Shown: piece after piece, positions 4,042-60,447 of the stretch
Numbering within the stretch: position 1 is the first letter of the stretch
How the letters are laid out: each line of letters begins with the position of its first letter
Origin: Nitrospiraceae bacterium
Lineage (GTDB): Bacteria > Nitrospirota > Nitrospiria > Nitrospirales > Nitrospiraceae
Reading direction: 5' to 3'
Length of the DNA stretch: 64,000 nucleotides
Assembly: GCA_046351115.1 (NCBI GenBank)
Contig: JAXLZB010000001.1
Location: forward strand, 2,990,570 to 3,054,569
The notes under the pieces: model-generated
The model's input: only the letters and a program-made list of their open reading frames with translations
Database searches by the model: none
What the model was told of the DNA's origin: nothing
Position numbers and translations under genes: made by a program

Positions 4042-4052
4042 TTGGTCGTGTC

Positions 4053-36102: not shown

Positions 36103-36573
36103 ATGATTTTCGACCGACGATGCCCGTTCACAGGAGCCCTTTCTCGCGGAAGGGCTTTTTTTGTGGGTATGATCATGCTGGCGGGCGTCTTTTGCGTCGC
36201 CGGGGCCGGATTGGCGGCCGACAACGGCCAGATGACGGCGGACGAAGCGGTGCAACTGGGTGAAGAATTCGGCATCGCGGTGGGGGAAGTCGACGAAGAA
36301 ATTCAACGGGAATTGAAACTCCAGCGTCCGGAAGGCGTAGCGGTGTTCGAAGTGATCGGCAATTCCCGGGCCGACTATGCCGGGATCAAGGTCCGTTCCG
36401 TCATCAAAGAAATCGATAAGAAGGAAGTGCGCAACCTGATCGATTTCGGCAAAGCCATCAAGGTCGCAATGAAGGAATGCAATTTCACGGTGGGCACCTA
36501 TGAACCGGCCGACCCCGGCGATCCAGTCGGGTGGGGCGTGAACTTTCATTTTGTCGGCTGCAAACGAGACTAA
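36103..36573 (+). CDS. Exported PDZ-domain protein
   Basis: Signal peptide (MIMLAGVFCVAGAGLAA), then a PDZ-like GVAVFEVIGNSRADYAGIKVRSVIKEIDKKEV. Confidence 0.65.
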   Translation: MIFDRRCPFTGALSRGRAFFVGMIMLAGVFCVAGAGLAADNGQMTADEAVQLGEEFGIAVGEVDEEIQRELKLQRPEGVAVFEVIGNSRADYAGIKVRSVIKEIDKKEVRNLIDFGKAIKVAMKECNFTVGTYEPADPGDPVGWGVNFHFVGCKRD

Positions 36574-36590
36574 GAGGAGCACCGGGTCGC

Positions 36591-37898: not shown

Positions 37899-37955
37899 GG
37901 TTGGCCTCGTTCTGCATGGTGGGTGAGATCTGCGGGGACAGGAGGAAAAGCGACG

Positions 37956-39194
37956 GTGACGCATCATCGGAAGCGGGTGGCGTGGACGGTCATCGGGTTG
38001 ATGCTGGGGCTCTGCATGGGGCTAGCCTATGGAGTTCAGCAGGGACTGGCCCAGGATCAAAAATCGGCTCTTTCAATCGACAAAGCATTTCCCAGTTCCA
38101 GCAAGTGCAAGCGCTGTCATGAACGTGTATTCGAAGAATGGGAAACCTCGCCGCTTTCCCGGTCCATCCATACACCAACCTTTCGGGCGGCCCTCGACGC
38201 ATACCTGAATTCCCCGGCCGGCAAAGACAAGGCGTTGTGTTTTCGTTGCCATGCGCCGCACGTCCGGGAGTTCACCGATCAGGCCCAACAGTTCGTTGCC
38301 CAAGCTCAGTCCGGTGAGCCCACGTTCGATGGAGTGGCTTGCGCCCAATGCCATCTGATCAAGCAGGTCGACCGGACGAAACAACCGCCAGAGCCCAAGT
38401 ACGACGTCGGCAGTAAGACCATGTATGGCCCATACAAGGACTTCGCTCAGAATTTGGCCCACCAGTCGATGGAACTCGGTCTCTTCCAGAAGTCCGATCT
38501 CTGTTTGAACTGTCATCAGGTGGTGCCGGCGGCAGCGGACCTCGGCAAGAGCAATGATTTGTTGGGCAACTGGGACCAAAGCAAGGCCGTCAAGTCCGGC
38601 AAGGAATGCCAGGCCTGTCATATGCCGGAGCAGGTCGGAGAATCTGCGAACGGTGAACGGAAACGGAAGGTGGCGAACCATACCTTCCCGGGCCGTATCG
38701 GGCAGCTTCGACAGGAGGCTGTCAAGCTCGAAGTGACCACCAAGGTCGAGGGTGAGAAGACGCTCGTGACGGTCACGGTGCAGAGCTTGGTCCCTCATAA
38801 TCTTCCGACCACGCATCCGGGCTGGGCCAGCGTCGTCCTTGAACTTGATATCAAGGGGAAGAATCTCAAGACGGTCTTCAACGAGAAGCGGATCTATGGA
38901 CGCGCCTACGCCGACGCCAAGGGCCAGAAGACCGTGTTTGATTTTGAAGCCACGAAGGTGCTGGAAGACACCGTCTTGAAGCCGGAAGAAAAGCGTGTGG
39001 AGACCTTCTCATTTCCCACACCGAAGGACACGAAGACGTTCGACGTCGAGGCCAGTCTCAGCTATGCCCCCGTGACCGGTCCCGCTCCGTTCCTGCAGCG
39101 CATCGAGGCAGAATCCTCCAAAGGCGCGCAGGACCCGGTGTTCCAACCGATTCCCATCGTCAAATTCAGCGAGAATATTCCGGTCAATAAATGA
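37956..39194 (+). CDS. Pentahaem cytochrome c (tandem paralogue)
   Basis: Five CxxCH motifs (CKRCH, CFRCH, CAQCH, CLNCH, CQACH), collinear with 36591..37898. GTG 37956 follows ggagga; the ORF-track start is 37923. Confidence 0.8.
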   Translation: MTHHRKRVAWTVIGLMLGLCMGLAYGVQQGLAQDQKSALSIDKAFPSSSKCKRCHERVFEEWETSPLSRSIHTPTFRAALDAYLNSPAGKDKALCFRCHAPHVREFTDQAQQFVAQAQSGEPTFDGVACAQCHLIKQVDRTKQPPEPKYDVGSKTMYGPYKDFAQNLAHQSMELGLFQKSDLCLNCHQVVPAAADLGKSNDLLGNWDQSKAVKSGKECQACHMPEQVGESANGERKRKVANHTFPGRIGQLRQEAVKLEVTTKVEGEKTLVTVTVQSLVPHNLPTTHPGWASVVLELDIKGKNLKTVFNEKRIYGRAYADAKGQKTVFDFEATKVLEDTVLKPEEKRVETFSFPTPKDTKTFDVEASLSYAPVTGPAPFLQRIEAESSKGAQDPVFQPIPIVKFSENIPVNK

Positions 39195-39896: not shown

Positions 39897-41954
39897 GTGA
39901 GTGACTCAGCGATTATCACCTTTGCATTGATTGCTGCTGCAGCGGGGATCGCGTATGGGCTCTATCTGGCGATGTGGGTGTTCAAGCTGAACGCCGGCAA
40001 TGCCAAGATGCAGGAGATCGCGAAAGCGATTCAGGAAGGCGCCAGCGCCTACATGAACCGTCAGTATAGGATGGTCGGTATGGTGGCGGCGGGTCTTTTC
40101 GTGGTGCTCTGGGGAGCCGGAGCCGTATCGGATAAGTTCGGATTTCTGACGGCAATTGGATTTCTCGTCGGTGCCGGCGCATCGGCGATCGCCGGCTATG
40201 TCGGCATGATCATCGCCGTGCGAGCCAATGTCCGAACGGCACAGGCGGCGCACGATGGAATGAATGCGGCTCTGACCGTGGCTTTCCGTGGCGGTGCCGT
40301 GACCGGTCTTCTGTTGATCGGTCTGGGCTTGCTGGCGATCACGGGGTTCTACACGCTGGCTACACAAATGGCCGGCCAGGAGAAGGCAATCCATGCGCTG
40401 CTGAGCCTTGGATTCGGTGGTAGTTTGATTTCGGTGTTTGCGCGGGTTGGCGGCGGGATCTATACGAAGGCCGCCGACGTGGGCGCAGACTTGGTCGGGA
40501 AAGTCGAAGCGGGAATTCCGGAAGACGACCCTCGCAACCCGGCGGTCATCGCCGATAACGTCGGGGACAATGTCGGCGATTGCGCCGGCATGGCGGCGGA
40601 CCTCTTCGAGACCTACGCGGTGACGACGGTCGCGGCGATGGTACTCGCCTTCACGATGTTCAAGGGACAAAGCGCTCCGATTCTCTATCCACTGGCGTTG
40701 GGTGCTGTCACGATTTTCGCCACGATCATCGGTATTCTATTCGTGAAGGTGAGCCCTGGCGGAGAGATCATGCCGGCCCTCTATAAAGGCCTGTTCGTCG
40801 CCGGTGGGATCGCAGCGGTGGCCTTCTTCCCGATCACGACGAAGGTGATGGAAGGGGTCGGGGGAGTCAGCGGCGTCAGCTACTACATCGCTGCGCTCCT
40901 CGGCTTGATCGTGACGCTGGCCCTGGTATTCATCACCGACTACTACACCTCGAAGAGCTATGCACCGGTGAAGGACATCGCTAAGGCGAGCGAGACGGGG
41001 CATGCGACGAACATCATCGCCGGCTTAGCCGTCGGCATGCAGTCGACGGCCGCGCCGGTGGTGGTGATCGCGGCGGCGATCTTGATCAGCTTCTGGATCT
41101 GCGGCGGGGCGGCCTCCGGCGGTTTGTACGGTGTGGCGGTGGCGGCGGTCTCGATGTTGTCGATGGCCGGGATCGTGGTCGCGATCGACGCATTCGGTCC
41201 GATCACCGACAACGCGGGCGGGATTGCGGAAATGTCTCACTTGGGAAAAGCCGTTCGCGACATTACCGATCCGTTGGATGCGGTCGGCAATACGACCAAA
41301 GCGGTCACGAAGGGCTACGCGATCGGCTCGGCCGGACTTGCGGCGGTGGTGTTGTTTGCCGAGTATTCACGCGAGGTCGCAGCGCATAATCCAGCCCTGG
41401 CGGCTTTTGACCTATCCGATCCAAAGGTGTTGGTCGGATTGTTCTTGGGCGGAATGTTGCCGTTTTTATTCGGCGCGCTCTGCATGAAAGCGGTGGGGCA
41501 GGCAGGCGGCTTGATTGTCGAGGAGGTTCGTCGCCAGTTCCGCACGATTAAGGGCATCATGGAAGGAACGGGGAAACCGGAATACGGGACGTGTGTCGAC
41601 ATCGTGACCCAGGCGGCGATCCAAAAGATGATGATCCCTGGCTTGATTCCGGTCGCTTCGCCGATTGTGATCGGACTCGTGCTTGGACCTCAGGCACTGG
41701 GAGGCATGCTGGTCGGCAGCATCGTGACCGGGCTTTTCGTGGCCATTTCCATGACGAGCGGGGGTGGCGCCTGGGACAATGCGAAGAAGTACATCGAAGA
41801 GCAGGGATTGAAGGGGTCGGATACCCACAAGGCTGCGGTGACCGGCGATACGGTCGGTGACCCCTACAAAGATACCGCTGGGCCTGCCGTCAATCCGATG
41901 ATCAAAGTCATCAATATCGTCGCGCTGTTGATCGTCTCACTGATCGTGCGATAG
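39897..41954 (+). CDS. hppA: Membrane-bound ion-translocating pyrophosphatase
   Basis: [18 protein letters not shown] and [15 protein letters not shown] signatures. 685 aa, GTG start after aaggag. Confidence 0.95.
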
Positions 41955-42553: not shown

Positions 42554-44269
42554 GTGGTCATGCGACAAAAGCTTTGGGTCTTTCGTCCGTCAAATCCCGC
42601 ACTCCAGATGAATCTGTCTCGAGCCTTGTCAATTTCCCCTGTCACAGCCTCGATCTTGATGGCAAGGGGCGTGACGTCGGCGGATGAGGCGACGCGCTGG
42701 ATGTCCGGAGATCAAGGTGGGCTCCATGATCCTTTCCTGTTGCCGGATATGGAGGCGGCGATCGATCGGCTCCAACGGGCTTTGCGCGGAAATGAGCGTG
42801 TCTGTTTTTACGGCGACTATGATGTGGACGGAGTCTCGGCTACCAGTTTGTATCTTTCGTTTTACCGGGGGCTTGGGGGGCAGGCGATACCCTACATCCC
42901 CCATCGGGTGCAGGAAGGATATGGGCTCAACGAAGCCGCGATACGGCACTTGTCGCAAGAGGGGGTGACGCTGCTCATCACGTCCGATTGCGGGACGACT
43001 TCGCATCGGGAAATCGCGCTGGCGGCGCAACTCGGAATCGATGTCGTGGTGACGGATCACCATCAAACCGACGAGACGATGCCATCTGCGGTCGCGGTAT
43101 TGAACCCGCATCGCCGCGACGCGCGCTATCCGTTTCGTGGACTCTGCTCGGCTGGGCTGGCCTACAAGGTCGTATCGGCCTACTGCAGGAAATACGGTGC
43201 CGGTGAATTGCCGCCGGAATCCTTTCTGGATTTGATGGCGTTGGCCACGGTGGCGGATGTCGTCCCGTTGCAGGATGAAAACCGCATCCTCGTCCGTGAA
43301 GGACTGGCGCAGCTCACACGCGGCGCGCGCTGTGGGGTGCGGGCCCTCAAGCAGGTCGCCGGTATTACAAAACCTTGCACGGCCGAGACCGTTGCGTTTC
43401 GTTTGGGCCCGCGACTGAATGCGGCCGGTCGTCTGGATCATGCGCTTGCCTGCGTTCGACTACTTACGACCGAGTCCGACTATGAAGCCAAAGAGCTTGC
43501 CGACCACCTGGAGCAACTGAATCGGCGGCGACAAGAAATCGAAGAAGACATCACTCGGGAAGCGGGCGAGCAATTGGCGCAGGACGAGTCTCGATCGGCG
43601 ATCGTGTTGGCGTCCTCGAAATGGCACTTGGGCGTGGTGGGGATCGTCGCGGCCCGTCTTGTCGACCGGTTCCACAAACCGAGCATCGTCATGGCCATCA
43701 ACGAGAAGGGGCTCGGGAAGGGGTCGGCGCGGACGGTCGAGGGGTTCGATTTGTACCAGGGGTTGACGGCTTGCCGCGAGCTCCTCGATGCTTACGGCGG
43801 ACACCCAAGCGCGGCCGGCCTTACGATTCAGGCCTCGCGGATCGAAGAGTTCCGCCGGCGCTTCGATGAGGTGGCCACTGCCTGGGCGGGGGCGGCTCCC
43901 TCGCAGCCGACTCTGCACGTTGATGCGGAGGTCAATCTGACGGACGTGAATTTCGGGCTCATCCGGGAATTGGAGTCGCTGCACCCATTCGGCGCGGGCA
44001 ATCCCGAGCCGACGCTGGCTGTGCGGGGATTGCAGGTGTTGGAGGCCCGGGTGGTGGGCGAGAAACACCTCAAGTTGCGGGTTCGTCAAGGCCGGTCCTT
44101 GACGTTCGACAGCATCGGGTTTCGCATGGGATCGTTTGAGGAGTTGGGGCTCACAACGAGCAAGCCGGTGGATCTGGCCTTTAGTCCGGAGCGGAATCAT
44201 TGGAACGGCTACGACCGTCTGCAATTGCGTATCAGAGCATTGCGGATGACGGAGGGAGTGTCCTCGTAA
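42554..44269 (+). CDS. recJ: Single-stranded-DNA-specific exonuclease RecJ
   Basis: FYGDYDVDGVSA and VTDHH (DHH family) motifs. Confidence 0.9.
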   Translation: MVMRQKLWVFRPSNPALQMNLSRALSISPVTASILMARGVTSADEATRWMSGDQGGLHDPFLLPDMEAAIDRLQRALRGNERVCFYGDYDVDGVSATSLYLSFYRGLGGQAIPYIPHRVQEGYGLNEAAIRHLSQEGVTLLITSDCGTTSHREIALAAQLGIDVVVTDHHQTDETMPSAVAVLNPHRRDARYPFRGLCSAGLAYKVVSAYCRKYGAGELPPESFLDLMALATVADVVPLQDENRILVREGLAQLTRGARCGVRALKQVAGITKPCTAETVAFRLGPRLNAAGRLDHALACVRLLTTESDYEAKELADHLEQLNRRRQEIEEDITREAGEQLAQDESRSAIVLASSKWHLGVVGIVAARLVDRFHKPSIVMAINEKGLGKGSARTVEGFDLYQGLTACRELLDAYGGHPSAAGLTIQASRIEEFRRRFDEVATAWAGAAPSQPTLHVDAEVNLTDVNFGLIRELESLHPFGAGNPEPTLAVRGLQVLEARVVGEKHLKLRVRQGRSLTFDSIGFRMGSFEELGLTTSKPVDLAFSPERNHWNGYDRLQLRIRALRMTEGVSS

Positions 44270-46452
44270 TGCCGCACGAGACGGTGACCCGGCTCGACCA
44301 ACTGATCGAGCGTGTCAAAAGCTACAACGTCGACGCAGATCTGGACCTGGTAAAGCAGGCCTATGAATTTTCCGCCAGGGCTCATGAAGGCCAGACCCGG
44401 CGGTCGGGAGAGCCGTATCTTCAACATCCACTGGCCGTCGCGGGCCTCCTGACGCATCTCAAGACCGATGTGGCCGCGATTGTGGCGGGGCTGTTGCATG
44501 ACACGCTGGAGGATACGCTGGCGACGCCGGCCGAACTCGAACAGCGGTTCGGCAAGGATGTGGTCCACCTGGTGGACGGCGTCACGAAGATCGGAAAAAT
44601 TACCTTCCGGAGCTACGAGGAAAAGCAGGCCGAAAATTTTCGCAAGATGGTCCTCTCGATGGCGGACGACATCAGGGTCGTCCTCATTAAGCTGGCCGAC
44701 CGGCTGCACAACATGCGCACGCTCGAGTACCTGAGCGAGCGCAAGCGGCATGAGATCGCCCAGGAAACGCTCGAAATTTACGCCCCGCTGGCGAATCGGT
44801 TGGGGATCGGTTGGATCAAGAACGAACTCGAGGACCTCTGTCTCAAGCATTTGAAGCCGGAGGTGTATGAGCAGCTGCGGATTCGCGTGGCGAAGCGGGA
44901 TGAAGATCGCCAGCAGTACATTCAGGAAGTGATCGAGGTGGTGAAGGGTGCCATTGCCGAAGCGGGCCTCACCGGCGATGTCTATGGGAGGCCGAAGCAT
45001 CTGTACGGCATCTACCAGAAGATGGAAAAGCAATCGATTACCTTCGAGGAGGTCTACGACCTCGCGGCGCTTCGGATCATCACCGATACCAAGATGAGCT
45101 GTTATGCCCTGTTGGGGGTCATCCATTCGCTCTGGCGGCCGCTGCCCGGCCGCTTCAAGGACTACATTGCGATTCCCAAGTCCAACCTGTATCAGTCCCT
45201 GCATACCACTGTAGTTGGCCCAAAAGGTGAGCACGTGGAGTTCCAGATCCGCACGGAGGAAATGCATCGCGTGTCGGAGCACGGCATCGCCGCCCATTGG
45301 AAGTACAAAGAGCAGGGCCGCATCGACGAAAAAGACGGCAAGGTGTTCAGTTGGTTGCGGCAGTTCGTGGAATGGCATCAGGATCTTCCGGACAACCGGC
45401 AATTCATGGATTCCGTGAAGCTCGATCTGTTTCACGACGTGGTCTACGTGTTTACGCCCAAGGGCATGGTCAAGGAGTTGCCCAAAGGGTCGACGCCGGT
45501 CGATTTTGCCTATTCGATCCATACCGAGATCGGAGACCATTGCGTCGGCGCCAAGGTCAACGGGAAGATCGTGCCGCTGAAGCATTCGATGGAGAGCGGT
45601 GATACCATTGAAATTTTGACCTCGCCCAACCAAACGCCGCACAAGGATTGGCTGAAGTTCGTCCGTACGTCTCGGGCCAAGACCAAGATCAAACATTGGA
45701 TCAAGGCGGAAGAGCAGGCGCGGAGCGTGGAAATCGGCAAACGCCTACTGGAGGCCGAGTTCCGTCGCCACGGGCTGGCACCGGCCCAGATGATTCGCTC
45801 GGAACAGCTGCTGGAGGTGGCGAAGCAGGCCGGGTATGAAACGACCGAAGAGTTGGCTGCCGCCGTGGGATTCGGGCATCTCCCGACCTCTCAAATCATC
45901 AGCAAGTTCACCTCCACGGTGCCGGCCGAGACGCAGCCGACGCAAGTCGAGCCGGAGTCGCCCCAGAAACCCGTCGCGGGCAAAGCCGACCATCAAGGTG
46001 TTCAAGTCAAAGGCGCGCGCGATCTTCTCATGCAGCTTTCACGTTGCTGCAACCCCGTTCCCGGTGATCGAATTTTGGGTTACATCACGAGAGGGCGTGG
46101 GCTTACGATTCACACTATCGATTGTCCGAATCTCGAGGCGTTGGACTACGATAAGAACCGGTTGGTGGAAGTCGAGTGGGATTTGGCCATGCCGGGGACC
46201 CATGCAGTCAAGGTCTCGGTCATCGCGGTCGATAGGACGGGCGTGTTGGCAAACGTGTCGGCAGCCATTGCCGAATGTTCCGCCAACATCAGTCGTGCGG
46301 AAATCACAACCAGGGAAGACCGTAAGGCTGTCCTCGATTTCGTCATCGAGATTACGGATACGGCCCATTTGCATCGGGTCCTGAAGACAATCGAAAAGGT
46401 CGATGGTGTCATCACTGCCCGCCGAGTTCGGTCGTGGCAGGAGCGGGCATGA
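44269..46452 (+). CDS. rel: Bifunctional (p)ppGpp synthetase/hydrolase (RelA/SpoT homologue)
   Basis: HD domain (HPLAVAG...HDTLEDT), synthetase YQSLHTTV, TGS and ACT regions. ATG 44269 overlaps the recJ stop (TAATG); the ORF-track start is 44200. Confidence 0.9.
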   Translation: MPHETVTRLDQLIERVKSYNVDADLDLVKQAYEFSARAHEGQTRRSGEPYLQHPLAVAGLLTHLKTDVAAIVAGLLHDTLEDTLATPAELEQRFGKDVVHLVDGVTKIGKITFRSYEEKQAENFRKMVLSMADDIRVVLIKLADRLHNMRTLEYLSERKRHEIAQETLEIYAPLANRLGIGWIKNELEDLCLKHLKPEVYEQLRIRVAKRDEDRQQYIQEVIEVVKGAIAEAGLTGDVYGRPKHLYGIYQKMEKQSITFEEVYDLAALRIITDTKMSCYALLGVIHSLWRPLPGRFKDYIAIPKSNLYQSLHTTVVGPKGEHVEFQIRTEEMHRVSEHGIAAHWKYKEQGRIDEKDGKVFSWLRQFVEWHQDLPDNRQFMDSVKLDLFHDVVYVFTPKGMVKELPKGSTPVDFAYSIHTEIGDHCVGAKVNGKIVPLKHSMESGDTIEILTSPNQTPHKDWLKFVRTSRAKTKIKHWIKAEEQARSVEIGKRLLEAEFRRHGLAPAQMIRSEQLLEVAKQAGYETTEELAAAVGFGHLPTSQIISKFTSTVPAETQPTQVEPESPQKPVAGKADHQGVQVKGARDLLMQLSRCCNPVPGDRILGYITRGRGLTIHTIDCPNLEALDYDKNRLVEVEWDLAMPGTHAVKVSVIAVDRTGVLANVSAAIAECSANISRAEITTREDRKAVLDFVIEITDTAHLHRVLKTIEKVDGVITARRVRSWQERA

Positions 46453-50860: not shown

Positions 50861-51499
50861 TTAGGAGCGGGCAGAGAGAGAATTCGGTTGTGTGGGAGCG
50901 AAGGCTCGCGCCACCGAAAAGCATGTGAGCACTGCCGCTGTGTCGAGCAGTAACAGTTGCCACCCGGTTCGCCAGGACCAGACTTCGTGGTCCGACTCCT
51001 CCAAAGGAATTTCGTGGTCGACTCGGGACTCAAAGTCCTTGAAGGCTTTATCGATGGTCAAGAAAAGGGCTCGTCCATCTCCGACTTTGACATAGAGATC
51101 TACCTGGTCTCGTTGGCCGTTCTCCGCGATGGTCGTGAGGCGATTCTTGCTGGCTACGAACTCTGTGACCCTGGCGTGTAACAGCCCTATGCCTCCCTGA
51201 AGCCGTTGGTCACCCGCGGTCAGCATCATCAACCGGTCGGTAATGGAGGTCAATTGCGCTTCAGCTGACTGGAGTGGCTCCAAGAATGTTTTCTGTCCCG
51301 CCAAGAGATAGCCACGAAAACTGGTTTCTACCTCCACCACCAGGCGTTCAAGGCGGAGGATCTGCTCGATGATCAGGGCGCGCTTGAGTTGGGCGTTTGA
51401 TCGTGATTTCCACTGCCCGAACAATGTCACGTGCCCGAGCAGAAACAGTATAAGGACGGCGGTCATGGCGGGAAGAAACCAGAAAGATCGAGGATACAT
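50861..51499 (-). CDS. Stand-alone CHASE3-domain membrane protein (no output domain)
   Basis: TM helix, CHASE3-type ETSFRGYLLAGQKTFLEPLQSA, second TM helix, then stop. ATG 51499 preferred over the ORF-track start 51589. Confidence 0.7.
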   Translation of the reverse strand: MYPRSFWFLPAMTAVLILFLLGHVTLFGQWKSRSNAQLKRALIIEQILRLERLVVEVETSFRGYLLAGQKTFLEPLQSAEAQLTSITDRLMMLTAGDQRLQGGIGLLHARVTEFVASKNRLTTIAENGQRDQVDLYVKVGDGRALFLTIDKAFKDFESRVDHEIPLEESDHEVWSWRTGWQLLLLDTAAVLTCFSVARAFAPTQPNSLSARS

Positions 51500-51593
51500 G
51501 GTTGCGTCTAAGCCGGTGCGTAGAATCGGATGAATCGCATTGCGAGTCACAATATGCTGCGCGGGGCTGTGTGAACGTACCCTCAACATGGGC

Positions 51594-51664: not shown

Positions 51665-52954
51665 TTAGAGCCAGTTGACCCGTTCTGCGGGTCGGATGTA
51701 GATCGGCTCTTCGACCTGAATGCGCGCCACTTCCTTGCCCGACTTGTTGAAGCCCAGCACGGTGTCGTTATACATGTCGAATCGCTTCCCGTGGATCTGG
51801 GTTTCGAACACTTTCGGGCCCGGAATGACGTCGTACCGGAAGATGATCTGCTGGCTGGCGCGCCACAATTGCAGCACCGCCAACAGTTCGCGGCTCGGCA
51901 CGAGATACTTCTCGATCGCATTGTCGACGCCCGGCCCGAACATCTGCCGGTTGTAGCCCCGCGGCGCGTGCCGCGGCGGAATATAGTACCCGTTGGGCTC
52001 CGTCCCCCATTGCGGGAACAGCGGCAAGGCCACCTGCTCCACGCGGATCGTGTAGTACAGGGGATGCCACCGGTCTTCCGCCCAGAGGCCGTCTTCGCCG
52101 ATGCGCACCAGGCTCTGCATGCGAATCTTGCCCACGCAGGCCGCCATACAGCGCGTTTCCATCGGCTCGCCGCCCGTCAAGGGGTCTTTGCCCTCGATGC
52201 GCGGATAGCACGCAATGCACTTTTCCGACACCCGGGTCGTGCCCCGGTACATCGGCTTCTTGAACGGGCACTGTTCCACGCACTTCTTGTACCCGCGGCA
52301 CCGGTTCTGGTCGATCAACACGATGCCGTCTTCCGGCCGCTTGTAGATCGCCTTGCGCGGGCAGGCTGCCAAGCAGCCCGGATACGTGCAGTGGTTGCAA
52401 ATGCGCTGGAGGTAGAAGAAGTACGTCTCGTGTTCCGGCAAGCTTGAGCCGGAGAGCCGCCACGGTTCGTCCCGGGAGAACCCGGATTTATCGATGTTTT
52501 CCACGAGCGCCCGCATCGAGGTCGCCGTGTCTTCATAGATGTTGACGAACCGCCACTCCTGGTCCGTCGGGATGTAGCCGATCGCCGCCTGGCCCACCTT
52601 GGCGCCCGCGTCGAAAATGGTCATCCCTTCGAACACCCCGTACGGGGCATGGTGCTTGCGGCCGACCCGCACGTTCCATACCTGGCCGCCCGGGTTCACC
52701 TGCTCGATGAGCTGGGTGATCTTCACGTCGTAGAACTGGGGATACCCGCCGTACGGCTTGGTCTCCACGTTGTTCCACCACATATACTCCTGGCCCTTGG
52801 AGAACAGCCAGGTCGACTTGTCCGCCATCGAACAGGTCTGACAGGCCAAACAGCGATTGATGTTGAACACAAAGGCAAACTGCCACTTCGGATGCCGCTC
52901 CTCGTAGGGATACAGCATCTTTCGTCCCAGGTGCCAGTTATACACTTCAGGCAT
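51665..52954 (-). CDS. nxrB: Nitrite oxidoreductase beta subunit (Nitrospira type)
   Basis: 429 aa, MPEVYNWHLGRKMLYPYEERHPKWQFAFVFNINRCLACQTCSMADK. Fe-S motifs CNHCTYPGCLAACP and CRGYKKCVEQCP. No signal peptide. Confidence 0.95.
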   Translation of the reverse strand: MPEVYNWHLGRKMLYPYEERHPKWQFAFVFNINRCLACQTCSMADKSTWLFSKGQEYMWWNNVETKPYGGYPQFYDVKITQLIEQVNPGGQVWNVRVGRKHHAPYGVFEGMTIFDAGAKVGQAAIGYIPTDQEWRFVNIYEDTATSMRALVENIDKSGFSRDEPWRLSGSSLPEHETYFFYLQRICNHCTYPGCLAACPRKAIYKRPEDGIVLIDQNRCRGYKKCVEQCPFKKPMYRGTTRVSEKCIACYPRIEGKDPLTGGEPMETRCMAACVGKIRMQSLVRIGEDGLWAEDRWHPLYYTIRVEQVALPLFPQWGTEPNGYYIPPRHAPRGYNRQMFGPGVDNAIEKYLVPSRELLAVLQLWRASQQIIFRYDVIPGPKVFETQIHGKRFDMYNDTVLGFNKSGKEVARIQVEEPIYIRPAERVNWL

Positions 52955-53068: not shown

Positions 53069-56000
53069 TTAGACTTTGATCTTGATGTGCTCGCCTTTGA
53101 GCCACTTGATCATGAACTCGTTTTCCTGACCCGGCGTGAAGCCCGTCCGGACCGGTTCCCACGGCCCACGCGCCCCGATGCCGCCGTCTTCCGCCTTGGT
53201 GATGCGGATCAAGCATTCCTTCGGGACCGTGTTGATCGCGTGGTGGTCGACCTGATAGCCCCACTTGAACTTCCAGGCAATCGCGTGTTTGCCCGGCAGC
53301 GAGTCGGTTTGGTGCATCGGCATCAACCAGTTCCGGGTAAAGGACTGTTGGGCCCCATACCGGAAGTTGGACTGATAGCCGGTGTCCACCGCGATGGCGC
53401 GGCCGTCCGGTCGCGTCTCGTGGCCCTTCACCGACTTCGGCGTCGACACGTACGGGGCGTGCTTCGCCATCGTGACGTGGTACGGATACGCCGGGTTGTA
53501 CTTGGCGCGGATCATCAAGCGCGCGACCTTGTAGTACGGATCCGAGGGCTTCCAGCCGCGGTACGGCCGGTCCACCGGGTTGCCGTCGACATACACGTAG
53601 TCGCCGTCGTTGATGCCGCGATCCTTCGCGGCCTGCGGGTTGATGTGGATCTGGTGCTCGCCGACGCCCGGCGTCCGCTTGTCCATGCGGTAGGGATCGC
53701 CGAAGTTCGACTCGTAAATCTGCACCCAGTCGTTCACCGACCACTGGCTGTGGACCCGGTGGCGGGTCTTCGGGGTGACGCAGTAGAACTGGTACCCTTT
53801 TTCCCACAACGGGTTCGCATGCCGTTTGATTTCTCCCCACGGCAACTTGATGTTGCGCACGTGTTTGTCGTCATGGTGCTGCGCCGTGATCGGAATCCCG
53901 TAGTCGTCCGGGCGGACGTACGGGTTGCTCGTCATGATCGCGTTCGGGAGGTAGGGCGTACATTCCGGCCCTTCCCGATGGACGACGAAGTTTTCGCCGT
54001 ACTCGATCGCCTCCGGTTCGATCCGGTAGGTCTCGATCCGGCCCGACCGCGTCCACTGAGGTTTCGACTCGTTGGTTTCTTCCCAGAGCGGATGGCGCGG
54101 ATAGGTGCGGCCCATGACCATCCAGCCCTTTTCCGACTTCAACATGACGTCGGCGCTGTATCCGTAGCAGGTTGAGCTGGCGTCCAGCATCCGCTGCGGG
54201 TACACATCGACGCGGTTCATATAGACGAAATGGAACACGCCGCGGAAGCGGGCATCGCCCGTTATCTCCGTCAACTTGGATGCGACACCGGCGAATGTGT
54301 CGGCATCGTTGCGGGTGTCGTACAACGGCCGGATGCCGCCCTTCCAGATCTGCACCCACGGATTGGACACCGTGGCCGTCATTTCCGGATAGGTGAATTC
54401 CATCCAGCTGTTGCAGGCAAACGCCACATCGGCGTGGTTGACGTCGGATGTCATCTCGATGTCCTGGGTCACGATCATCTCGATGTTCGGGTCGACGTTC
54501 TTCACCATGTCGTAGTGGTGTTTCGCGTTGTTCAGGATGTTCACATTCGTGACCCACCGGACCTTGCTGGGGCTCGGCATGTGGGTCTTGCCGGTGAACA
54601 CCTTGCGTCCGTACTTCGGCGTGTTGACGATCAAGGCCGTGTCGCCGTGGTTCCAGTACCCGACCTCTTCGCCGTAGTAGTACGACTTGGTCTTGATTTC
54701 CTTGCCATGGGCATTGGGGTCCAACGTAAGGTTGAACGGATCTTCTCCCGTATGCACGGCGAGGCCGGCGCCGGACCACGGCACCGCGTTCCAGATGCCG
54801 GCTTTGTAGTTGCCGGACCAGGTGTGGCATCCGGTGCCGAACTTGCCGATATTCCCGGTCAGAGTGAGCACCATGGCTGCCGCACGCCCCATTTCCGTCA
54901 TGTGGAAGTAGTGGCAGACGCCTTCGCCGTTGTGCATCGCGGCCGGCTTGACCGTGCCCGAGTCGCGCGCCCACCGGACAATGAGATCCTTCGGCGCCCG
55001 GGTGATTTGATGCGTCGTATCCAGGTCGTAGTCCTGGAGGTGGACCAAGTACAGCTGGTAGATCGACATGACGTCGACCTCCCGACCGTTCAAGAGCTTC
55101 ACGCGGAACGTCCCGGTCAGGGCCGGGTCGATACCGCTGGCCTTGAAATGAACTCCGACCATTTCACGATGGATGGGGACCGCCTTGCCCTTGGCCAGAT
55201 CCCACACCATCATCCCGCCGAGCCGCTCGATCTGGTCCGGCTTGAGGGATTGGATGCGTCCGGAATAGCTCTTGGAAAAATCCGGCAGCTTGTAGTCCGC
55301 GATGACGTCGCGCGGATCGAGGTATTGCAGCGTATCCGTGCGGACGAGAAGCGGGAGGTCCGTGAAATCCTTGATGTAGTCGATATCCTGCATGTTCTCG
55401 TCGAGAATGATCTTGCAGGCACCGAGGAAGTGTGCGGCATCGGTTTCTGGCCGCAGCGGAATCCAATAGTCGGCCCGATAGGCCGTCGGATTGTATTCCG
55501 GCGTGATGACGACGATCCGGGCGCCGCGCTCGATCGACTCGAGTTTCCAGTGGGCTTCCGGCATCTTGTTCTCGACGAAGTTCTTCCCCCAGCTGGTGTT
55601 CAGTTTGGAGAAGCGCATGTCGTTGAGATCGATGTCGCAGTTCTGCGTGCCGTTCCACCAGGGGTGGGACGGGTCCTGGTCGCCGTGCCAGGTGTAATTC
55701 GAGTAATACTTGCCGCCTTGCGCTTTATCCGGATCAACCTTCCGGATGAATGTGTCGAGGAGAGGCAGGCATCCGCCGTTAAACCTGGTGTTCATCATCT
55801 TGCCGACGATGCCCAGCACCGGCATGCCCGCGCGATGCTTGAAGCACCGCACGCCCGCGCCCTTCATCATCTCGATCATTTCCGGGGCATAGCCCTGCTC
55901 GCGCAACCGCCTCGCACCGGACTCCCCGCTGTACCGCGTCGCGATCACGATGCAGGCCTTGGCCACATACGTAAACGCCGTGTCCCAGGAGACCCGATTC

Positions 56001-56512
56001 ATGTCGTCGAGGAAGCGGCTGTCGAATTTGTATTTGCGTTTGACGTCCGGCGTCAGCTCGGGGGAGCCGTCGTCCATCCACTGCTTCCAGCCCTTCCGCA
56101 TTAACGGCCCCTTCAACCGATAGGGTCCGTACACGCGGCGATGGAAGGTGAACCCCTTCAGGCACATGCGCGGGTTGTGCGCGAATGTCCCGCGATTGCC
56201 GTAGAGGTCCTCATAGGTTTGGTGATCGTAGTTCTGCTCGACCCGCATGACGACGCCGTTCCGGACGAAGGCCCGGACGCGACAGCCGTGGGTATCATTC
56301 GGCGAGCAGCACCACGTAAACGACGAGTCATACCGGTACTGGTCATGGTAGACGCGCTCCCACGACCGGTCCGGATACTCGCCCAGCGGGTTCCCGACTT
56401 CCACGACCGGCTGCAGCGCGGTCAGCGCCAGGACTTTATCCGCCACGGCGATCGCCGCGACGGTTCCCACCGTCACTTTGAGAAATTGTCTCCGTGAAAC
56501 GGAAACGTGCAT
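53069..56512 (-). CDS. nxrA: Nitrite oxidoreductase alpha subunit (periplasmic, Mo-bis-MGD, Tat-exported)
   Basis: MHVSVSRRQFLKVTVGTVAAIAVADKVLA Tat signal. WCCSPNDTHGCR Fe-S motif. About 1147 aa. ATG 56512 with aaggagg 8 nt upstream; the ORF-track TTG is at 56518. Confidence 0.95.
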   Translation of the reverse strand: MHVSVSRRQFLKVTVGTVAAIAVADKVLALTALQPVVEVGNPLGEYPDRSWERVYHDQYRYDSSFTWCCSPNDTHGCRVRAFVRNGVVMRVEQNYDHQTYEDLYGNRGTFAHNPRMCLKGFTFHRRVYGPYRLKGPLMRKGWKQWMDDGSPELTPDVKRKYKFDSRFLDDMNRVSWDTAFTYVAKACIVIATRYSGESGARRLREQGYAPEMIEMMKGAGVRCFKHRAGMPVLGIVGKMMNTRFNGGCLPLLDTFIRKVDPDKAQGGKYYSNYTWHGDQDPSHPWWNGTQNCDIDLNDMRFSKLNTSWGKNFVENKMPEAHWKLESIERGARIVVITPEYNPTAYRADYWIPLRPETDAAHFLGACKIILDENMQDIDYIKDFTDLPLLVRTDTLQYLDPRDVIADYKLPDFSKSYSGRIQSLKPDQIERLGGMMVWDLAKGKAVPIHREMVGVHFKASGIDPALTGTFRVKLLNGREVDVMSIYQLYLVHLQDYDLDTTHQITRAPKDLIVRWARDSGTVKPAAMHNGEGVCHYFHMTEMGRAAAMVLTLTGNIGKFGTGCHTWSGNYKAGIWNAVPWSGAGLAVHTGEDPFNLTLDPNAHGKEIKTKSYYYGEEVGYWNHGDTALIVNTPKYGRKVFTGKTHMPSPSKVRWVTNVNILNNAKHHYDMVKNVDPNIEMIVTQDIEMTSDVNHADVAFACNSWMEFTYPEMTATVSNPWVQIWKGGIRPLYDTRNDADTFAGVASKLTEITGDARFRGVFHFVYMNRVDVYPQRMLDASSTCYGYSADVMLKSEKGWMVMGRTYPRHPLWEETNESKPQWTRSGRIETYRIEPEAIEYGENFVVHREGPECTPYLPNAIMTSNPYVRPDDYGIPITAQHHDDKHVRNIKLPWGEIKRHANPLWEKGYQFYCVTPKTRHRVHSQWSVNDWVQIYESNFGDPYRMDKRTPGVGEHQIHINPQAAKDRGINDGDYVYVDGNPVDRPYRGWKPSDPYYKVARLMIRAKYNPAYPYHVTMAKHAPYVSTPKSVKGHETRPDGRAIAVDTGYQSNFRYGAQQSFTRNWLMPMHQTDSLPGKHAIAWKFKWGYQVDHHAINTVPKECLIRITKAEDGGIGARGPWEPVRTGFTPGQENEFMIKWLKGEHIKIKV

Positions 56513-56684
56513 AGCCAATACCTCCTTGTAAGGCAGATCAATGATTCATGGTGCTGTTCGTGCCATCGAGTCGGCCGGTCCGCAGAACATCTGTGATCAC
56601 CTCCCTTCGCGTGGTCGGATGGAAACATCTCGTTGCGGAACCGGTTGTAATCGTGCGAACAGCGCATGACGGGGTATGGGAATA

Positions 56685-56699
56685 TCAAGTGACGTGCCG
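56685..56699 (-). promoter_or_regulatory. Weak sigma-54 -24/-12 candidate (CGGCAC-N5-TTGAT)
   Basis: Minus-strand CGGCACGTCACTTGA. GG and spacing fit TGGCAC-N5-TTGCW, but the -12 C is an A. About 170 nt upstream of the nxrA ATG. Confidence 0.25.
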
Positions 56700-56965
56700 C
56701 GGGTGAGGTCTCGCGCCAGCCGTCGTCGCGCGGAAGGAGACTGATGGAAATTCAGTATGTTGTGAAAATCGGCCGGAAGTCGACGGGCGCTTGGAAGGAA
56801 TTGCGGCTTGGGCTCTGTCAGCAAGGGCTGACGCGCTGGTACATGCTCTTGGCTAAGTTATGGAAATGATGGGGCGATCTGGTGTCCGAAATCACGGACA
56901 CTAGGGCTGGATTCGCCAATACCCACGCCAGACGAGGAGTTCAGCGGGTTTCGTACAACGCAGCG

Positions 56966-58402
56966 TCAGGATTTACTGACGTCCTGCCCGGCATCTTTGA
57001 GATAGCGCCGCATGATTTCATGAAAATAAGAGCGAGGGAGGCCGGCCTCCTGTGCGGCGTGGGTGACATTGCCGTGATGGATCGAGAGCTTGGCGGAGAT
57101 GTATCGATGGTTGAATGCGGCGAGGATCTGCTCCTTGGCCTTCGCATATGGAAGGTGAAGGTAATCTTCCATTCCGTCCGCTCCTCGCCGGTCGGGAGAC
57201 TGCAGCAGCCCTGAGACGTCTGTCACGGCGATTCGATTGCTCTTGGCCAGCATGACCGCGCGCTCCATGACGTTGCGGAGCTCGCGCACGTTACCGGGCC
57301 AGGGATAGGCAACCAATTCGGTGACGGCCGACGGATGAATATCGTCGGTGTGCTTGCTGAATTCCTTGGCATAGCGCGACATGAAATGCCGAGCCAAGAC
57401 GGGGATGTCTTCCGGCCGTTCGCGCAGGGGCGGGACGCGGATGACCATGACGTTGAGCCTGAAAAACAGGTCCTTGCGAAATTCGTTGCGCTTGACCTTT
57501 TCGGCCAGGTCCTGGTTCGTGGCTGCGACGAACCGGACATTCACCTTCTTTTGCTGGGTGCTGCCGACTGCTCGAACCTCGCCCTCTTCCAGCACCCGTA
57601 GGAGCTTGGCTTGCAAGTTGGCGGGTAGGTCTCCGATCTCGTCGAGAAAGACCGTGCCGCGGCTTCCGGACTCGATCAGGCCGGTCTTGTCCGACACCGC
57701 CCCAGTGAATGCCCCGCGCACATGGCCGAAGAGTTCGCTTTCGACGGTGCCCTCGGCAAATGTCGTGCAGTCGACCACTTGAAAGGGGCCGTCACGCTCG
57801 GCGCTGCGCTCATGGATGGCCTTTGCGATCAACTCTTTTCCGGTACCGGTTTCACCGATGATGAGCGTGGTCGAAGGGACTTTGGCGATGGCTTCGATCA
57901 TCTGCATCACGTTCTTGATCGGCGGGCTGACTCCGACCAGATCCTTGAACGGCATCGGCTGGCTGTCGGTCCCGTTGGGCTCGGTGTGCCGAAGAATATC
58001 GGCCATGCGCATGGCACGGTGGATGCGGGCGGCCAGATCCATCGCGTCGAACGGTTTGACCACGTAATCGAACGCGCCGTGGCGCATGGCATCGATTGCG
58101 GTATCGACCGCATTGACCCAGCTGACGACGATGACCGGGATGCGGCGGTTCATATCCTGGACCCGCCGGAGCAACTCGATGCCGCTCATCCCGGGTAACC
58201 GAACGTCCGTGATGATGAGGTCGATCGGTTCGTGGGAGAGGCGCTCCAATCCACCTTCAGCCGTTGCGTTGATCAATAATTCCACTTCCTCATCCTCATG
58301 GCGAGGCAGTTCGTGTTCCACGGCGCGAAGGAACATCTCGACGTCGCCGCCGTTGTCCTCGATCAACAGGATGGTGAAGGTTGAGGGCTTGGTCGTGGGC
58401 AT
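56966..58402 (-). CDS. Sigma-54-dependent response regulator (NtrC family)
   Basis: REC (DLIITDVRLPG), Walker A GETGTGKE, GAFTGA, C-terminal HTH. Confidence 0.9.
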   Translation of the reverse strand: MPTTKPSTFTILLIEDNGGDVEMFLRAVEHELPRHEDEEVELLINATAEGGLERLSHEPIDLIITDVRLPGMSGIELLRRVQDMNRRIPVIVVSWVNAVDTAIDAMRHGAFDYVVKPFDAMDLAARIHRAMRMADILRHTEPNGTDSQPMPFKDLVGVSPPIKNVMQMIEAIAKVPSTTLIIGETGTGKELIAKAIHERSAERDGPFQVVDCTTFAEGTVESELFGHVRGAFTGAVSDKTGLIESGSRGTVFLDEIGDLPANLQAKLLRVLEEGEVRAVGSTQQKKVNVRFVAATNQDLAEKVKRNEFRKDLFFRLNVMVIRVPPLRERPEDIPVLARHFMSRYAKEFSKHTDDIHPSAVTELVAYPWPGNVRELRNVMERAVMLAKSNRIAVTDVSGLLQSPDRRGADGMEDYLHLPYAKAKEQILAAFNHRYISAKLSIHHGNVTHAAQEAGLPRSYFHEIMRRYLKDAGQDVSKS

Positions 58403-58404
58403 GG

Positions 58405-60447
58405 CTAGCCTCTTTCAGCTTGATAGGACAGGTTGGAGAGCAGGGATGCAGATTGGGGCGAGCCAGTTCCACGTTCGGCGGACTTACCGCCGGGAACCGG
58501 GAGACGGAACTGGAATCGGCTGCCGATGCCTGGCGTGGAATCGACCCAGATGGCCCCCTCGTACTGTTCGACCACGGTCTTGACGATAGACAATCCGATG
58601 CCTGCGCCGGGGATATCGGCGGTGCAGAGCCGTTGAAACGGCTCGAAGATCCTTGCCGTCATCGCGGGATCGATGCCCATGCCGTTGTCGTCTACATAGA
58701 TCACCGCGCCGTGCGGGGAGGGATCCCAACCGATGTCCACACGCGGATGCGGCTGCGTACCCATATATTTGATGGCGTTCCCGATTAAATTTTCCAGCAC
58801 CTGTTTGAGGTGGATACGGCGGCAGGCCAGCCGCGGAAGATTGTCAGCAATCGTCACGGTTACCCTGGCCGCCTGGGCCAGGGGCGCGAGTAAATCCAGC
58901 ACTTCCTTCACGACCGCCTGCGTATCGACGCTTTCCAACGGGCTGGGAACCGCCGTGATGCGAGCCAGGTCCAATGTGCGTTCCGCCAGCTGTGCGAGAT
59001 CGCGTCCCTCCTTCTTGATCCATTCGAGATAGCGCCGTCCTTTGTCGTCCAGTCGGCTGCCGTAGTCCGATTCGATCCAGGATGCGAATTCCGCGACGCG
59101 GCCGGCTGGCGCCTTCACCTCGTGAGTCAGCTCCGCGACGTTGCGTTCGACGGCGTGCAGCTTCGCGCGGAGGAGATGTGACTCGGACTGCAGCGCGTCG
59201 AACAGCCGTGCATTCTCGATGGTGACCGCCGCATAGGCCGCGAATTGCTGCGCCAGCCTGATATCCCATTCGCTGAAGGACCGCTGGGTCCCAGTGCTCA
59301 GGAGGGTCAGCACGCCGATGCAGTCGTGCGGCCCGAGCAGCGGGACGGCCAGATAGCTTTGTGCTCCGAACTCGTCGCGAAAGTGAATCAGGCGATCATG
59401 GCAGCTGCCGACATCGGCGACCACGACCGGACGTTTGGTCTCGTACGCTTCGTTGGAAAATGGGGTTTCTTCGGTGAGGAGAATCTGTTTGCGGATGGTG
59501 TCGAAGGCTTGTCCTGATGCGGCCTCCACGATCCAACATTCCAAGACGGAGTGGCGGACCATAATGACGGCCATGTCTACCCGGACGAGGTCGGCTGCGC
59601 GGTCGACGATACGTCGCAGCACCTGCTCGATACCTCCGATGCCGAGTGTGCTGATCTCTTGGCCGGTCGCATGGAGCGCTTCCAGCTCCTCGATGCCCTG
59701 CCTGGTTCGCTGCGCCATATGTTCGAAAGTGCGGGCTAGGCGACCGAGCTCGTTCGACGACTGCACGGCAAGCGTGGTGTTCAGGTCTCCCGCCGCAAGC
59801 CGCTCGGCTCCCCGGGTCAGTTCCTGGAATGGTCGGCGGATCGTCCGGTGGAACAGGATGAAGGCGCCTCCCAGCAGTCCGGCCGACAGGATTAGAAAAA
59901 GAATTTGTAGGGCATAGAGGGTCTTCGTTCTCGCTGCGGCATTGCGTTCGAGGCTGTGCACCATGACCGAAAGGGCATCGACGAATTCATCGGCGTGCCG
60001 GAGGTATTCCTGCTGAGCCAGTTCCAGTTGCATCCCGGATGCTCTGGTTGCCGATTCGATCGACGGGCGGAGCTGCAGGTCCCAACGGTCTTGCAGCCCC
60101 TGAATCTGCCCCATCACCGAGGGCTCGATCTCGCCGATCGGGGCATGATCGGCCGTGCCGTATCGCAAGCCGGTCAGGACTTTCTCCCATCGTGCCGTTT
60201 CCTGGGTAATGAGGTCGCGAAGTGTCGCTTCCTGCTGGGGGGCCGACAGTTGCAGCAGCAGCGAAGCCAGCCGGTAGATACGCATCCGTTCCGTTCCGGC
60301 TTGATCGATCGCGGTACTGATTCCGATCAGCTGTGCCGCCATGTAGGAGGAAACGAGCAACAGGGCGCTGTACATGAGGAACACCAGGAGGAAGGTGGCA
60401 CCGATCTGAGCGATCAACGAAGAGCGGAAGGTTCGGAATCGGCGCAT
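58405..60447 (-). CDS. Sensor histidine kinase with a NarX/NarQ-type periplasmic P-box domain, HAMP, GAF, HisKA, HATPase
   Basis: Start ATG 60447 (the ORF-track extension to 60930 overlaps the upstream gene). P-box AIDQAGTERMRIYRL, HAMP, GAF, H-box THEVKAP, G-box GAGIGLS. Confidence 0.85.
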   Translation of the reverse strand: MRRFRTFRSSLIAQIGATFLLVFLMYSALLLVSSYMAAQLIGISTAIDQAGTERMRIYRLASLLLQLSAPQQEATLRDLITQETARWEKVLTGLRYGTADHAPIGEIEPSVMGQIQGLQDRWDLQLRPSIESATRASGMQLELAQQEYLRHADEFVDALSVMVHSLERNAAARTKTLYALQILFLILSAGLLGGAFILFHRTIRRPFQELTRGAERLAAGDLNTTLAVQSSNELGRLARTFEHMAQRTRQGIEELEALHATGQEISTLGIGGIEQVLRRIVDRAADLVRVDMAVIMVRHSVLECWIVEAASGQAFDTIRKQILLTEETPFSNEAYETKRPVVVADVGSCHDRLIHFRDEFGAQSYLAVPLLGPHDCIGVLTLLSTGTQRSFSEWDIRLAQQFAAYAAVTIENARLFDALQSESHLLRAKLHAVERNVAELTHEVKAPAGRVAEFASWIESDYGSRLDDKGRRYLEWIKKEGRDLAQLAERTLDLARITAVPSPLESVDTQAVVKEVLDLLAPLAQAARVTVTIADNLPRLACRRIHLKQVLENLIGNAIKYMGTQPHPRVDIGWDPSPHGAVIYVDDNGMGIDPAMTARIFEPFQRLCTADIPGAGIGLSIVKTVVEQYEGAIWVDSTPGIGSRFQFRLPVPGGKSAERGTGSPQSASLLSNLSYQAERG

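Follow-up and report, generated by a model that had tools for sequence, protein, structure and literature searches.

How is nitrite oxidoreductase (NXR) regulated in Nitrospira, and what is a NarX-like kinase doing beside its genes? In soils, waters and wastewater plants, nitrite oxidation is dominated by Nitrospira, most of which carry several copies of nxrAB, the regulation of which is not understood. The question arises at a locus of a Nitrospiraceae bacterium (NCBI GenBank assembly GCA_046351115.1, contig JAXLZB010000001.1, positions 2,990,570 to 3,054,569; the whole 64,000-nt stretch that was analysed is referred to here as the window), in which a sensor histidine kinase gene and a gene for an NtrC-type response regulator precede nxrA and nxrB (Table 1). 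An earlier note, made from the DNA letters alone, had interpreted the kinase as a nitrite/nitrate sensor that feeds a sigma-54 activator for nxrAB, and our analysis supports this interpretation as a model. We consider it reasonably probable that the pair forms a two-component system for the dedicated control of one nxrAB copy in a Nitrospira genome, in which N-oxyanion sensing of the NarX type is relayed through the NtrC-type regulator and a set of palindromes to a sigma-54 promoter. The link of the pair to nxrAB is stronger than adjacency, as it is drawn from synteny, palindromes and a sigma-54-type promoter candidate together.

The sensor part of the kinase contains a 15-residue P-box, AIDQAGTERMRIYRL, which is identical at 9 of 15 positions to the NarX P-box as found in PDB entry 3EZH (AINKAGSLRMQSYRL), and the residue numbers of NarX coincide with those of the kinase (G51, R54 and M55). 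The same count of nine identities had been given in the earlier note and stands, but the reference string quoted there for NarX, AINIAGSLRMQSYRL, is what we take to be that of NarQ; nine identities result with either reference. The match to NarX is not due to chance: in a six-frame translation of the window the kinase P-box is the sole 15-mer with at least 7 of 15 identities to the NarX P-box, and the pattern A[IVL][DNE]xAGxxRMxx[YF][RK][LIM] has a single occurrence in the window and none in 200 shuffles. Hydropathy analysis indicates just two hydrophobic segments in the kinase (approximately aa 11-35 and aa 176-198) with positive-inside flanks. Given only these two membrane segments and their positive cytoplasmic flanks, the P-box would lie about 10 residues past the first transmembrane helix (TM1), in the periplasm, as it does in NarX. 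Its placement at 60268-60312 between the two transmembrane helices, which had been read from the letters, agrees exactly with the translation and the hydropathy. The gene start at 60447 is consistent with 680-aa orthologues of 91% identity, and a protein identical to the window kinase is held at NCBI (MBX3238151.1), where its name is merely 'GAF domain-containing protein'.

More than 120 full-length orthologues with 51-91% identity to the kinase were collected. Those with a named source are all from Nitrospira or Nitrospiraceae, the architecture is the same throughout, and nearly all of 120 have a precomputed PF13675 (PilJ) match. A family profile built from 23 diverse sensor domains of these orthologues was compared with the PDB and found NarX (3EZH, E 5.1e-7; 3EZI, E 8e-6) and the chemoreceptor McpN (6GCV, E 3.1e-5), with all other entries at 0.03 or above. 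An AlphaFold2 model of the sensor, computed from the orthologue alignment with a pLDDT of 91.7, predicts helices at aa 3-68, 70-96, 109-135 and 138-199, that is, a long TM1-H1 helix, H2, H3 and a long helix joining H4 to the second transmembrane segment (TM2). When this model was compared with the PDB by Foldseek, places 1-8 were all taken by NarQ fragments or McpN, at 18-21% identity and with TM-scores of 0.59-0.78 (higher normalisation). The E-values of these matches, approximately 0.01-0.025, are modest, as is usual with helical bundles. A profile search of the periplasmic domain had been put forward earlier as a check, and NarX-like character is what emerged from the Pfam PilJ match above threshold, the family profile and the fold matches, which support the prediction that the sensor domain is of the PilJ/NarX type.

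Within the periplasmic domain, conservation is highest in the P-box, which has the family consensus AIEQAGTERMRIYKL. Among 92 orthologues, G51 and M55 are present in all, R56 and Y58 in 91 and R54 in 90. In McpN, nitrate is contacted on the dimer axis by G58, A59, R61 and M62, and the R61A exchange abolishes binding (PMC6381276), while in NarX and NarQ arginines hold nitrate stacked between the glycines of the G-x-x-R motif (PMC8199190). We assigned the contact residues of the kinase by homology to McpN and to this motif. Since G51, T52, R54 and M55 match the nitrate contacts of the solved structures, the kinase is predicted to retain all residues of the oxyanion site. Three orthologues (P0047, P0055 and P0068) are otherwise full length and carry VIEEVETERTRVYKL in place of the P-box, with G51 changed to E and M55 to T and no PilJ match recorded; they could act as natural controls for the binding-site hypothesis.

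Behind the sensor, the earlier note had listed HAMP, GAF and HisKA domains, and Pfam finds all three, the last slightly below its threshold. The predicted phospho-acceptor, H442 in the motif HEVKAPAG, is invariant in the family. A HisKA_3 domain (H-D-x-x-x-Q), the class found in NarX, was not found in the kinase by Pfam, and the PDB matches of the transmitter are HisKA kinases (8f71, HK853, bacteriophytochrome kinases and ZraS) with no HisKA_3 kinase among them. In NCBIfam, the kinase matches no equivalog and the NarX/NarQ models are absent from the top matches. By its motif and domain matches, the transmitter is of the HisKA class and not HisKA_3. Residues 15-431 of the kinase align with a PilJ-HAMP-GAF-HisKA_3 kinase named NarX by JGI, and a full-length alignment is obtained with a PilJ-HAMP-GAF-HisKA kinase of another organism. 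As the NarX-type alignment ends exactly at the H-box and the transmitter is of the HisKA class, the kinase can be described as a NarX-like input module (sensor, HAMP and GAF) on a HisKA transmitter. The H-box itself, H-E-V-K-A-P (residues 442-447; 59107..59124, (-) strand), has an Ala at H+4, with a conservation of 90% or more across the family. A passage of PMC8199190, citing Willett and Kirby 2012, states that HisKA kinases mostly have Thr or Asn at this position, which is required for phosphatase activity; the nearest solved kinases, 8f71 and the bacteriophytochrome kinases, are likewise without Thr or Asn there. Because the data set of that review was selected on HisKA_3, it could not include this kinase family, and Nitrospira go unmentioned in it (PMC8199190).

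The gene that follows encodes the presumed partner. Only 2 nt lie between the kinase stop codon (TAG, 58405-58407) and the regulator ATG at 58402, and coordinates and domains agree with the earlier description of a sigma-54 activator 2 nt from the kinase stop and directly upstream of nxrA. Pfam detects Response_reg, Sigma54_activat (213.7 bits) and AAA_lid_14 in the regulator, and the expected motifs can be recognised as a predicted phospho-acceptor D66 in LIITD, a Walker A motif GETGTGKE and the sigma-54 contact loop GAFTGA. The best NCBIfam model is ntrC, with 372 bits versus an equivalog cutoff of 558.6, and no equivalog cutoff is reached. Judged by these domains and motifs, the regulator is a canonical NtrC-type protein, and the proposal of an NtrC-type rather than a NarL-type partner is supported, the receiver, the Sigma54_activat domain and a helix-turn-helix (HTH) being present and ntrC being the best family match.

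How unusual is this combination? When a profile of the sensor domain was searched exhaustively, 1120 relatives came up at E <= 1e-3, among which the Nitrospira family is reduced to a few representatives. After these come chemoreceptors with three PilJ repeats, PilJ-HAMP-GAF-HisKA_3 kinases to which JGI gives the name NarX, and PilJ-HAMP-(GAF/PAS)-HisKA kinases, and some relatives carry a GGDEF motif (by motif match, not Pfam). The closest sensor relatives beyond the kinase family are P0128 and P0129, metagenomic chemoreceptors (JGI) with three tandem PilJ domains, the P-boxes of which, e.g., AIDQAGAQRMRTYKL, are nearly the same as those of the Nitrospira kinases. The earlier note had spoken of a 'rewired' sensor, and the NarX-like input with a HisKA transmitter and an NtrC-type partner is indeed found; it is not, however, a unique event, as PilJ-HAMP-(GAF/PAS)-HisKA kinases are common outside Nitrospira.

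The breadth of these relatives bears on whether the sensor reads N-oxyanions at all. The PilJ-fold domain might respond to something else, for instance to another anion or to an accessory protein, or be mainly structural, with the GAF domain taking a redox, nitric oxide (NO) or metabolite input. PilJ domains without nitrate binding exist (PMC6381276), and the 'AG(S/T)ERMR' form of the P-box is present in many unrelated architectures. The GAF domain of the kinase is well conserved, with H299, C304 and W305 invariant, and is weakly similar to the GAF-A domain of DevS/DosT, and a small CHASE3 membrane protein without an output domain is encoded just downstream of nxrB. On the other hand, the P-box is the best conserved part of the periplasmic domain and every nitrate-contacting residue is kept, and the location beside an enzyme of nitrite and nitrate suits an N-oxyanion signal. 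A haem-binding GAF of the DevS/DosT type was considered on account of the weak PDB similarity and rejected, since the proximal haem-binding His, the haem ligand of DevS, is not aligned and not conserved. We regard a signal other than nitrite or nitrate as quite improbable, and return to the N-oxyanion sensor in what follows.

The relation of the pair to nxrAB was assessed in 31 Nitrospira loci from species-representative genomes, one of which (L028) ends within the kinase gene. In all 30 loci that reach past the kinase, a regulator orthologue (68-90% identity) comes next, and nxrA follows the regulator in every contig that runs more than about 500 nt further. Across the related loci, nxrA is 85-97% and nxrB 94-99% identical. 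The gene order kinase, regulator, nxrA, nxrB is thus conserved over about 30 Nitrospira loci. Many metagenome contigs (L003, L010, L013, L020, L021, L025 and others) stop at most about 500 nt past the regulator, at the start of nxrA. Since nxrAB is a multi-copy repeat whose copies collapse, these ends are probably assembly breaks, and automated context analyses would therefore often overlook the link between the kinase and nxrAB.

The spacer between the regulator and nxrA was aligned for 14 loci, and its elements were counted in 30. The alignment reveals three conserved palindromes of the form TGTCA-N8-TGACA and one GGCA(C/T)-N5-TTG(T/A) element with sigma-54 spacing. In the window, palindrome 2 reads TGTCC..GGACA, both arms having changed symmetrically versus the TGTCA..TGACA of other loci. 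The pattern GTCMG-N6-CKGAC occurs exactly three times in the 64-kb window, always within this 450-nt spacer, versus 0.54 expected for the whole window, and in the 30 loci the spacers, 15.8 kb in total, contain 36 perfect palindromes, versus 3 in 319 kb elsewhere. The promoter candidate has two mismatches to TGGCAC-N5-TTGCW. With two mismatches allowed, this consensus is matched 31 times in the window versus 28.5 expected, no excess over chance, and the candidate was recognised solely through conservation in the multi-locus alignment: its GGCA and TTG are invariant among the 14 aligned loci, and the element occurs once in 28 of 30 spacers.

These elements speak to the idea that the kinase and regulator are mere neighbours of nxrAB and control other genes. 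Some nxrAB copies do lack a nearby regulator, e.g., nxrAB_1 of N. moscoviensis and that of N. inopinata (PMC6606698), as this idea would have it. It does not fit a gene order kept in about 30 loci, and because of the cis elements, namely palindromes concentrated in the regulator-nxrA spacer (all three in the window, and 36 versus 3 elsewhere among the 30 loci) and a sigma-54-type promoter candidate at a conserved position upstream of nxrA, we consider it very unlikely.

N. moscoviensis has two kinase-regulator-nxrAB units of this kind. In front of a second tandem nxrAB copy (L043, CP011801) lies a different kinase, 686 aa long (864..2924) and with HAMP, GAF and HATPase domains, whose periplasmic domain is CHASE3-like and without a P-box. 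The regulator that follows it (2949..4415) is 49% identical to that of the window, and in the spacer a canonical TGGCAG-N5-TTGCT promoter is present, whereas TGTCA palindromes are absent. With its CHASE3-like kinase, other promoter and missing palindromes, this unit suggests that at least two sensory inputs serve different nxrAB paralogues. A third regulator of the same type, without a kinase gene of its own, lies before a further nxrA copy (L045, CP011801, 19214..20635), directly after a kinase-regulator-nxrAB unit.

How would the circuit work? The analysis shows which domains are present, their fold, a conserved site, the synteny, and cis elements that are themselves conserved; what is bound, which way the response goes, and the steps of phosphotransfer and DNA binding are inferred. 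The kinase would be a dimeric membrane protein in which G51, T52, R54 and M55 of helix 1 make up an oxyanion site that lies on the dimer axis. The periplasmic domain would sample the periplasm and bind nitrite and/or nitrate. The signal would pass through TM2, HAMP and GAF to the HisKA-class transmitter, which is predicted to autophosphorylate on H442 and to hand the phosphoryl group to D66 of the NtrC-type regulator. The phosphorylated regulator would assemble on the three palindromes (TGTCA-N8-TGACA) of the regulator-nxrA spacer, and its GAFTGA-bearing AAA+ domain would open the sigma-54 promoter about 125 nt downstream, leading to transcription of nxrAB. Nitrospira NXR is periplasmic and converts nitrite into nitrate. 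Given this periplasmic location, established by the Tat signal of NxrA as well as in the literature, the sensor would face the same compartment as the enzyme.

Which of the two oxyanions is the signal is a further question. We lean towards nitrite, the substrate, as the activating signal, which would switch on an extra nxrAB copy when nitrite is plentiful. In N. moscoviensis grown in a nitrite-fed chemostat at low residual nitrite, expression was weak both for the nxrAB copies behind this type of regulator and for the regulators themselves (PMC6606698), and nitrate must have been present in that culture, as it is the product of NXR. The same hardware could also respond to nitrate only, either to report the accumulation of product or to induce NXR for reverse nitrate reduction in the absence of oxygen with hydrogen or formate. 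NarX prefers nitrate. McpN, the second-best sequence match in the PDB and a top fold match, binds nitrate and not nitrite (PMC6381276). Reduction of nitrate with formate by N. moscoviensis is cited in a passage of PMC6606698, and differences between the paralogues in nitrate reduction have been proposed as possible (PMC6606698). A nitrate signal fits poorly, however, with weak expression in a chemostat in which nitrate was necessarily present, and we consider nitrate as the sole ligand unlikely. The authors of the McpN structure saw no structural reason for the difference in specificity between McpN and NarX; as the published structures offer no rule that tells nitrate from nitrite (PMC6381276), sequence cannot separate nitrite from nitrate sensing in either direction. 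A bolder proposal is that the sensor family is tuned to nitrite over nitrate, with the near-invariant E53 and R56 beside the binding Arg contributing. We hold this to be possible but somewhat doubtful; if true, it would make this family the first kinase dedicated to nitrite sensing and the switch by which Nitrospira deploy extra nxrAB copies according to nitrite supply.

A number of observations weigh against the circuit proposed here, or against parts of it. On the side of the sensor, NarX is the best match of the kinase in a single-sequence PDB search, but a weak one (E 0.019), and the PilJ score exceeds its gathering threshold by merely 1.5 bits. P-box position 3 is D48 in the window kinase and, in the 92 orthologues, Glu in 64, Asp in 14 and Asn in 14, whereas nitrate/nitrite sensor kinases have Asn there with 99% conservation (PMC8199190). 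Next to the predicted binding residues, the kinase has E53 and R56 where NarX has L53 and Q56, and PilJ itself does not bind nitrate, so that a PilJ domain is no guarantee of binding (PMC6381276). On the side of the output, HisKA scores 25.8 bits, slightly below its gathering threshold of 26.9, and the HTH_8 match of the regulator is weak (16.7 bits versus 22, E 0.006). The exact consensus TGGCAC-N5-TTGCW does not occur in the window, and the -12 element of the promoter candidate ends in A here and in T in most other loci, versus the canonical C. The chemostat argument for nitrite is indirect. Finally, the highly expressed, dominant nxrAB copy of N. moscoviensis is linked to a NifA-like regulator (PMC6606698), so that the kinase-regulator system would control particular nxrAB copies conditionally rather than act as a master switch.

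Comparison with known systems places the proposed circuit between two well-studied groups. The NarX-NarL system and the NarQ-NarP system of E. coli share with it the order of TM1, periplasmic four-helix bundle and TM2, followed by HAMP and a GAF or GAF-like module, and the P-box at the same residue numbers with its G-x-x-R-M core; their sensor domain is also the best PDB match by profile and by fold. They differ in having HisKA_3 instead of the HisKA-class dimerisation and histidine phosphotransfer (DHp) domain of the window kinase, and a NarL/LuxR-type partner instead of an NtrC-type sigma-54 activator. Their P-box has Asn at position 3 and L-R-M-Q in its core, whereas Asp or Glu and E53-R-M-R56 are found here, and the predicted target in the window is the nitrite-oxidising enzyme of an aerobic chemolithoautotroph. 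McpN (PA2788 of Pseudomonas aeruginosa, 6GCV) is alike in its PilJ-type domain, in the conserved contacts G, the following residue, R and M, and in fold (target-normalised TM-score approximately 0.77), and unlike in its methyl-accepting chemotaxis output, its specificity for nitrate and its N-box, Q-R-M-L-[ST]-Q versus E-R-M-R-I-Y in the kinase. The NtrB-NtrC, ZraS-ZraR and AtoS-AtoC systems pair a HisKA-class kinase with a regulator composed of a receiver, an AAA+ domain (GAFTGA) and a Fis-type HTH, and their regulators bind upstream palindromes and activate a -24/-12 promoter, as proposed here. None of them has a PilJ/NarX-type sensor; NtrB is a cytoplasmic kinase under the control of PII, and the input of ZraS is metals.

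Parts of this picture have precedents. Sigma-54 regulators upstream of Nitrospira nxrAB have been reported already, according to passages of PMC6606698 and PMC7522533 that cite Lucker 2010 and Koch 2015, and in Ca. Nitromaritima a NarX-like kinase was noted that lies downstream of the NXR genes (PMC5029188). These reports concern the same regulator genes and the same idea of sigma-54 or two-component control of NXR, and the occurrence of PilJ domains on several output types is also known (PMC6381276). In the literature on Nitrospira with NarX, PilJ or sensor histidine kinase, the Nitromaritima remark (PMC5029188) is the only one found. In the searched literature, which did not extend to the primary genome reports (Lucker 2010; Koch 2015), the P-box, the HisKA/NtrC coupling, the palindromes and the promoter of the nxr-linked kinase are undescribed. 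What is new here is the conservation of the gene order, the three palindromes and the conserved sigma-54-type promoter candidate, all of which build on the modular reuse of well-known parts. The result is a concrete testable circuit, conserved in about 30 loci, with a proposed oxyanion sensor of named residues, a predicted phospho-acceptor, three putative operator palindromes and a promoter candidate, and the regulation of nitrite oxidoreductase paralogues becomes directly testable with it. We know of no genetic system for Nitrospira, and all pieces of the circuit are accessible to tests outside this genus. If nitrite is the ligand, the kinase would provide a natural nitrite-specific sensing module, possibly of use as a biosensor, and would help to explain the behaviour of nitrite oxidisers in partial-nitritation processes.

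Table 1. Features of the kinase-regulator-nxrAB locus, with positions in the window; residue numbers (aa) are those of the encoded protein.
Feature	Position	Strand	Description
Sensor histidine kinase gene	58405..60447	(-)	680 aa; TM1, PilJ/NarX-like periplasmic domain, TM2, HAMP, GAF, HisKA-type DHp, HATPase_c
P-box AIDQAGTERMRIYRL	60268..60312	(-)	aa 46-60 of kinase; predicted oxyanion site G51, T52, R54, M55 on dimer axis
Predicted periplasmic four-helix-bundle sensor domain, PilJ/NarX type	59923..60342	(-)	aa 36-175 of kinase
PilJ (PF13675)			aa 36-138 of kinase; Pfam 28.1 bits (gathering 26.6), E 2.2e-6
HAMP	59698..59856	(-)	aa 198-250 of kinase; Pfam 55.6 bits
GAF	59218..59631	(-)	aa 273-410 of kinase; Pfam 69.8 bits
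Kinase transmitter	58492..59139	(-)	HisKA-class DHp, aa 437-499; catalytic HATPase_c, aa 544-652
NtrC-type response regulator gene	56966..58402	(-)	478 aa; receiver, sigma-54 AAA+, lid, Fis-type HTH aa 428-467
Palindrome 1 GTCAGtaaatcCTGAC	56965..56980		overlaps regulator stop codon; predicted activator binding site
Palindrome 2 GTCCGtgatttCGGAC	56884..56899		within longer GTGTCCG-N6-CGGACAC
Palindrome 3 GTCAGcccttgCTGAC	56817..56832		nearest palindrome to the promoter candidate, ~125 nt upstream of it
Sigma-54-type promoter candidate CGGCACGTCACTTGAT	56684..56699	(-)	GGCAC-N5-TTGA; ~170-185 nt upstream of nxrA ATG
nxrA, NXR alpha subunit	53069..56512	(-)	Pfam Molybdopterin, Fe4S4, TAT_signal; predicted target
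nxrB, NXR beta subunit	51665..52954	(-)	Pfam Fer4_11

Directly downstream of nxrB, the window encodes a 242-aa membrane protein (50861..51589, (-) strand) with a CHASE3 domain between two hydrophobic segments and no output domain, for which NCBIfam gave no match. A copy that is 38% identical follows nxrB in another Nitrospira locus (L016, 17101..17583), and N. moscoviensis has a 228-aa TarH/4HB_MCP_1 protein at the same place after nxrB (L043, 18723..19409). Possibly the CHASE3 protein serves the nxr-linked kinases as an accessory sensor. The window also contains two multihaem cytochrome c genes side by side, and in addition genes for a membrane H+-pyrophosphatase and for RelA/SpoT (36531..39194, 39897..41954 and 44200..46452, all on the (+) strand). 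Pentahaem cytochromes are among the genes diagnostic for nitrite-oxidising Nitrospirales (PMC12342949).

Rfam returned no known RNA family for the regulator-nxrA spacer and the nxrA leader. The leader contains a purine-rich box, GAAGGGAGGTGA (56597..56608, (-) strand), which is kept in all 14 aligned loci and lies, in the window, approximately 75-90 nt upstream of the real nxrA ribosome-binding site. In several loci the box is followed by a small AAAGG..CCTTT hairpin, and in the window by a 14-codon upstream open reading frame with its ATG at 56590.

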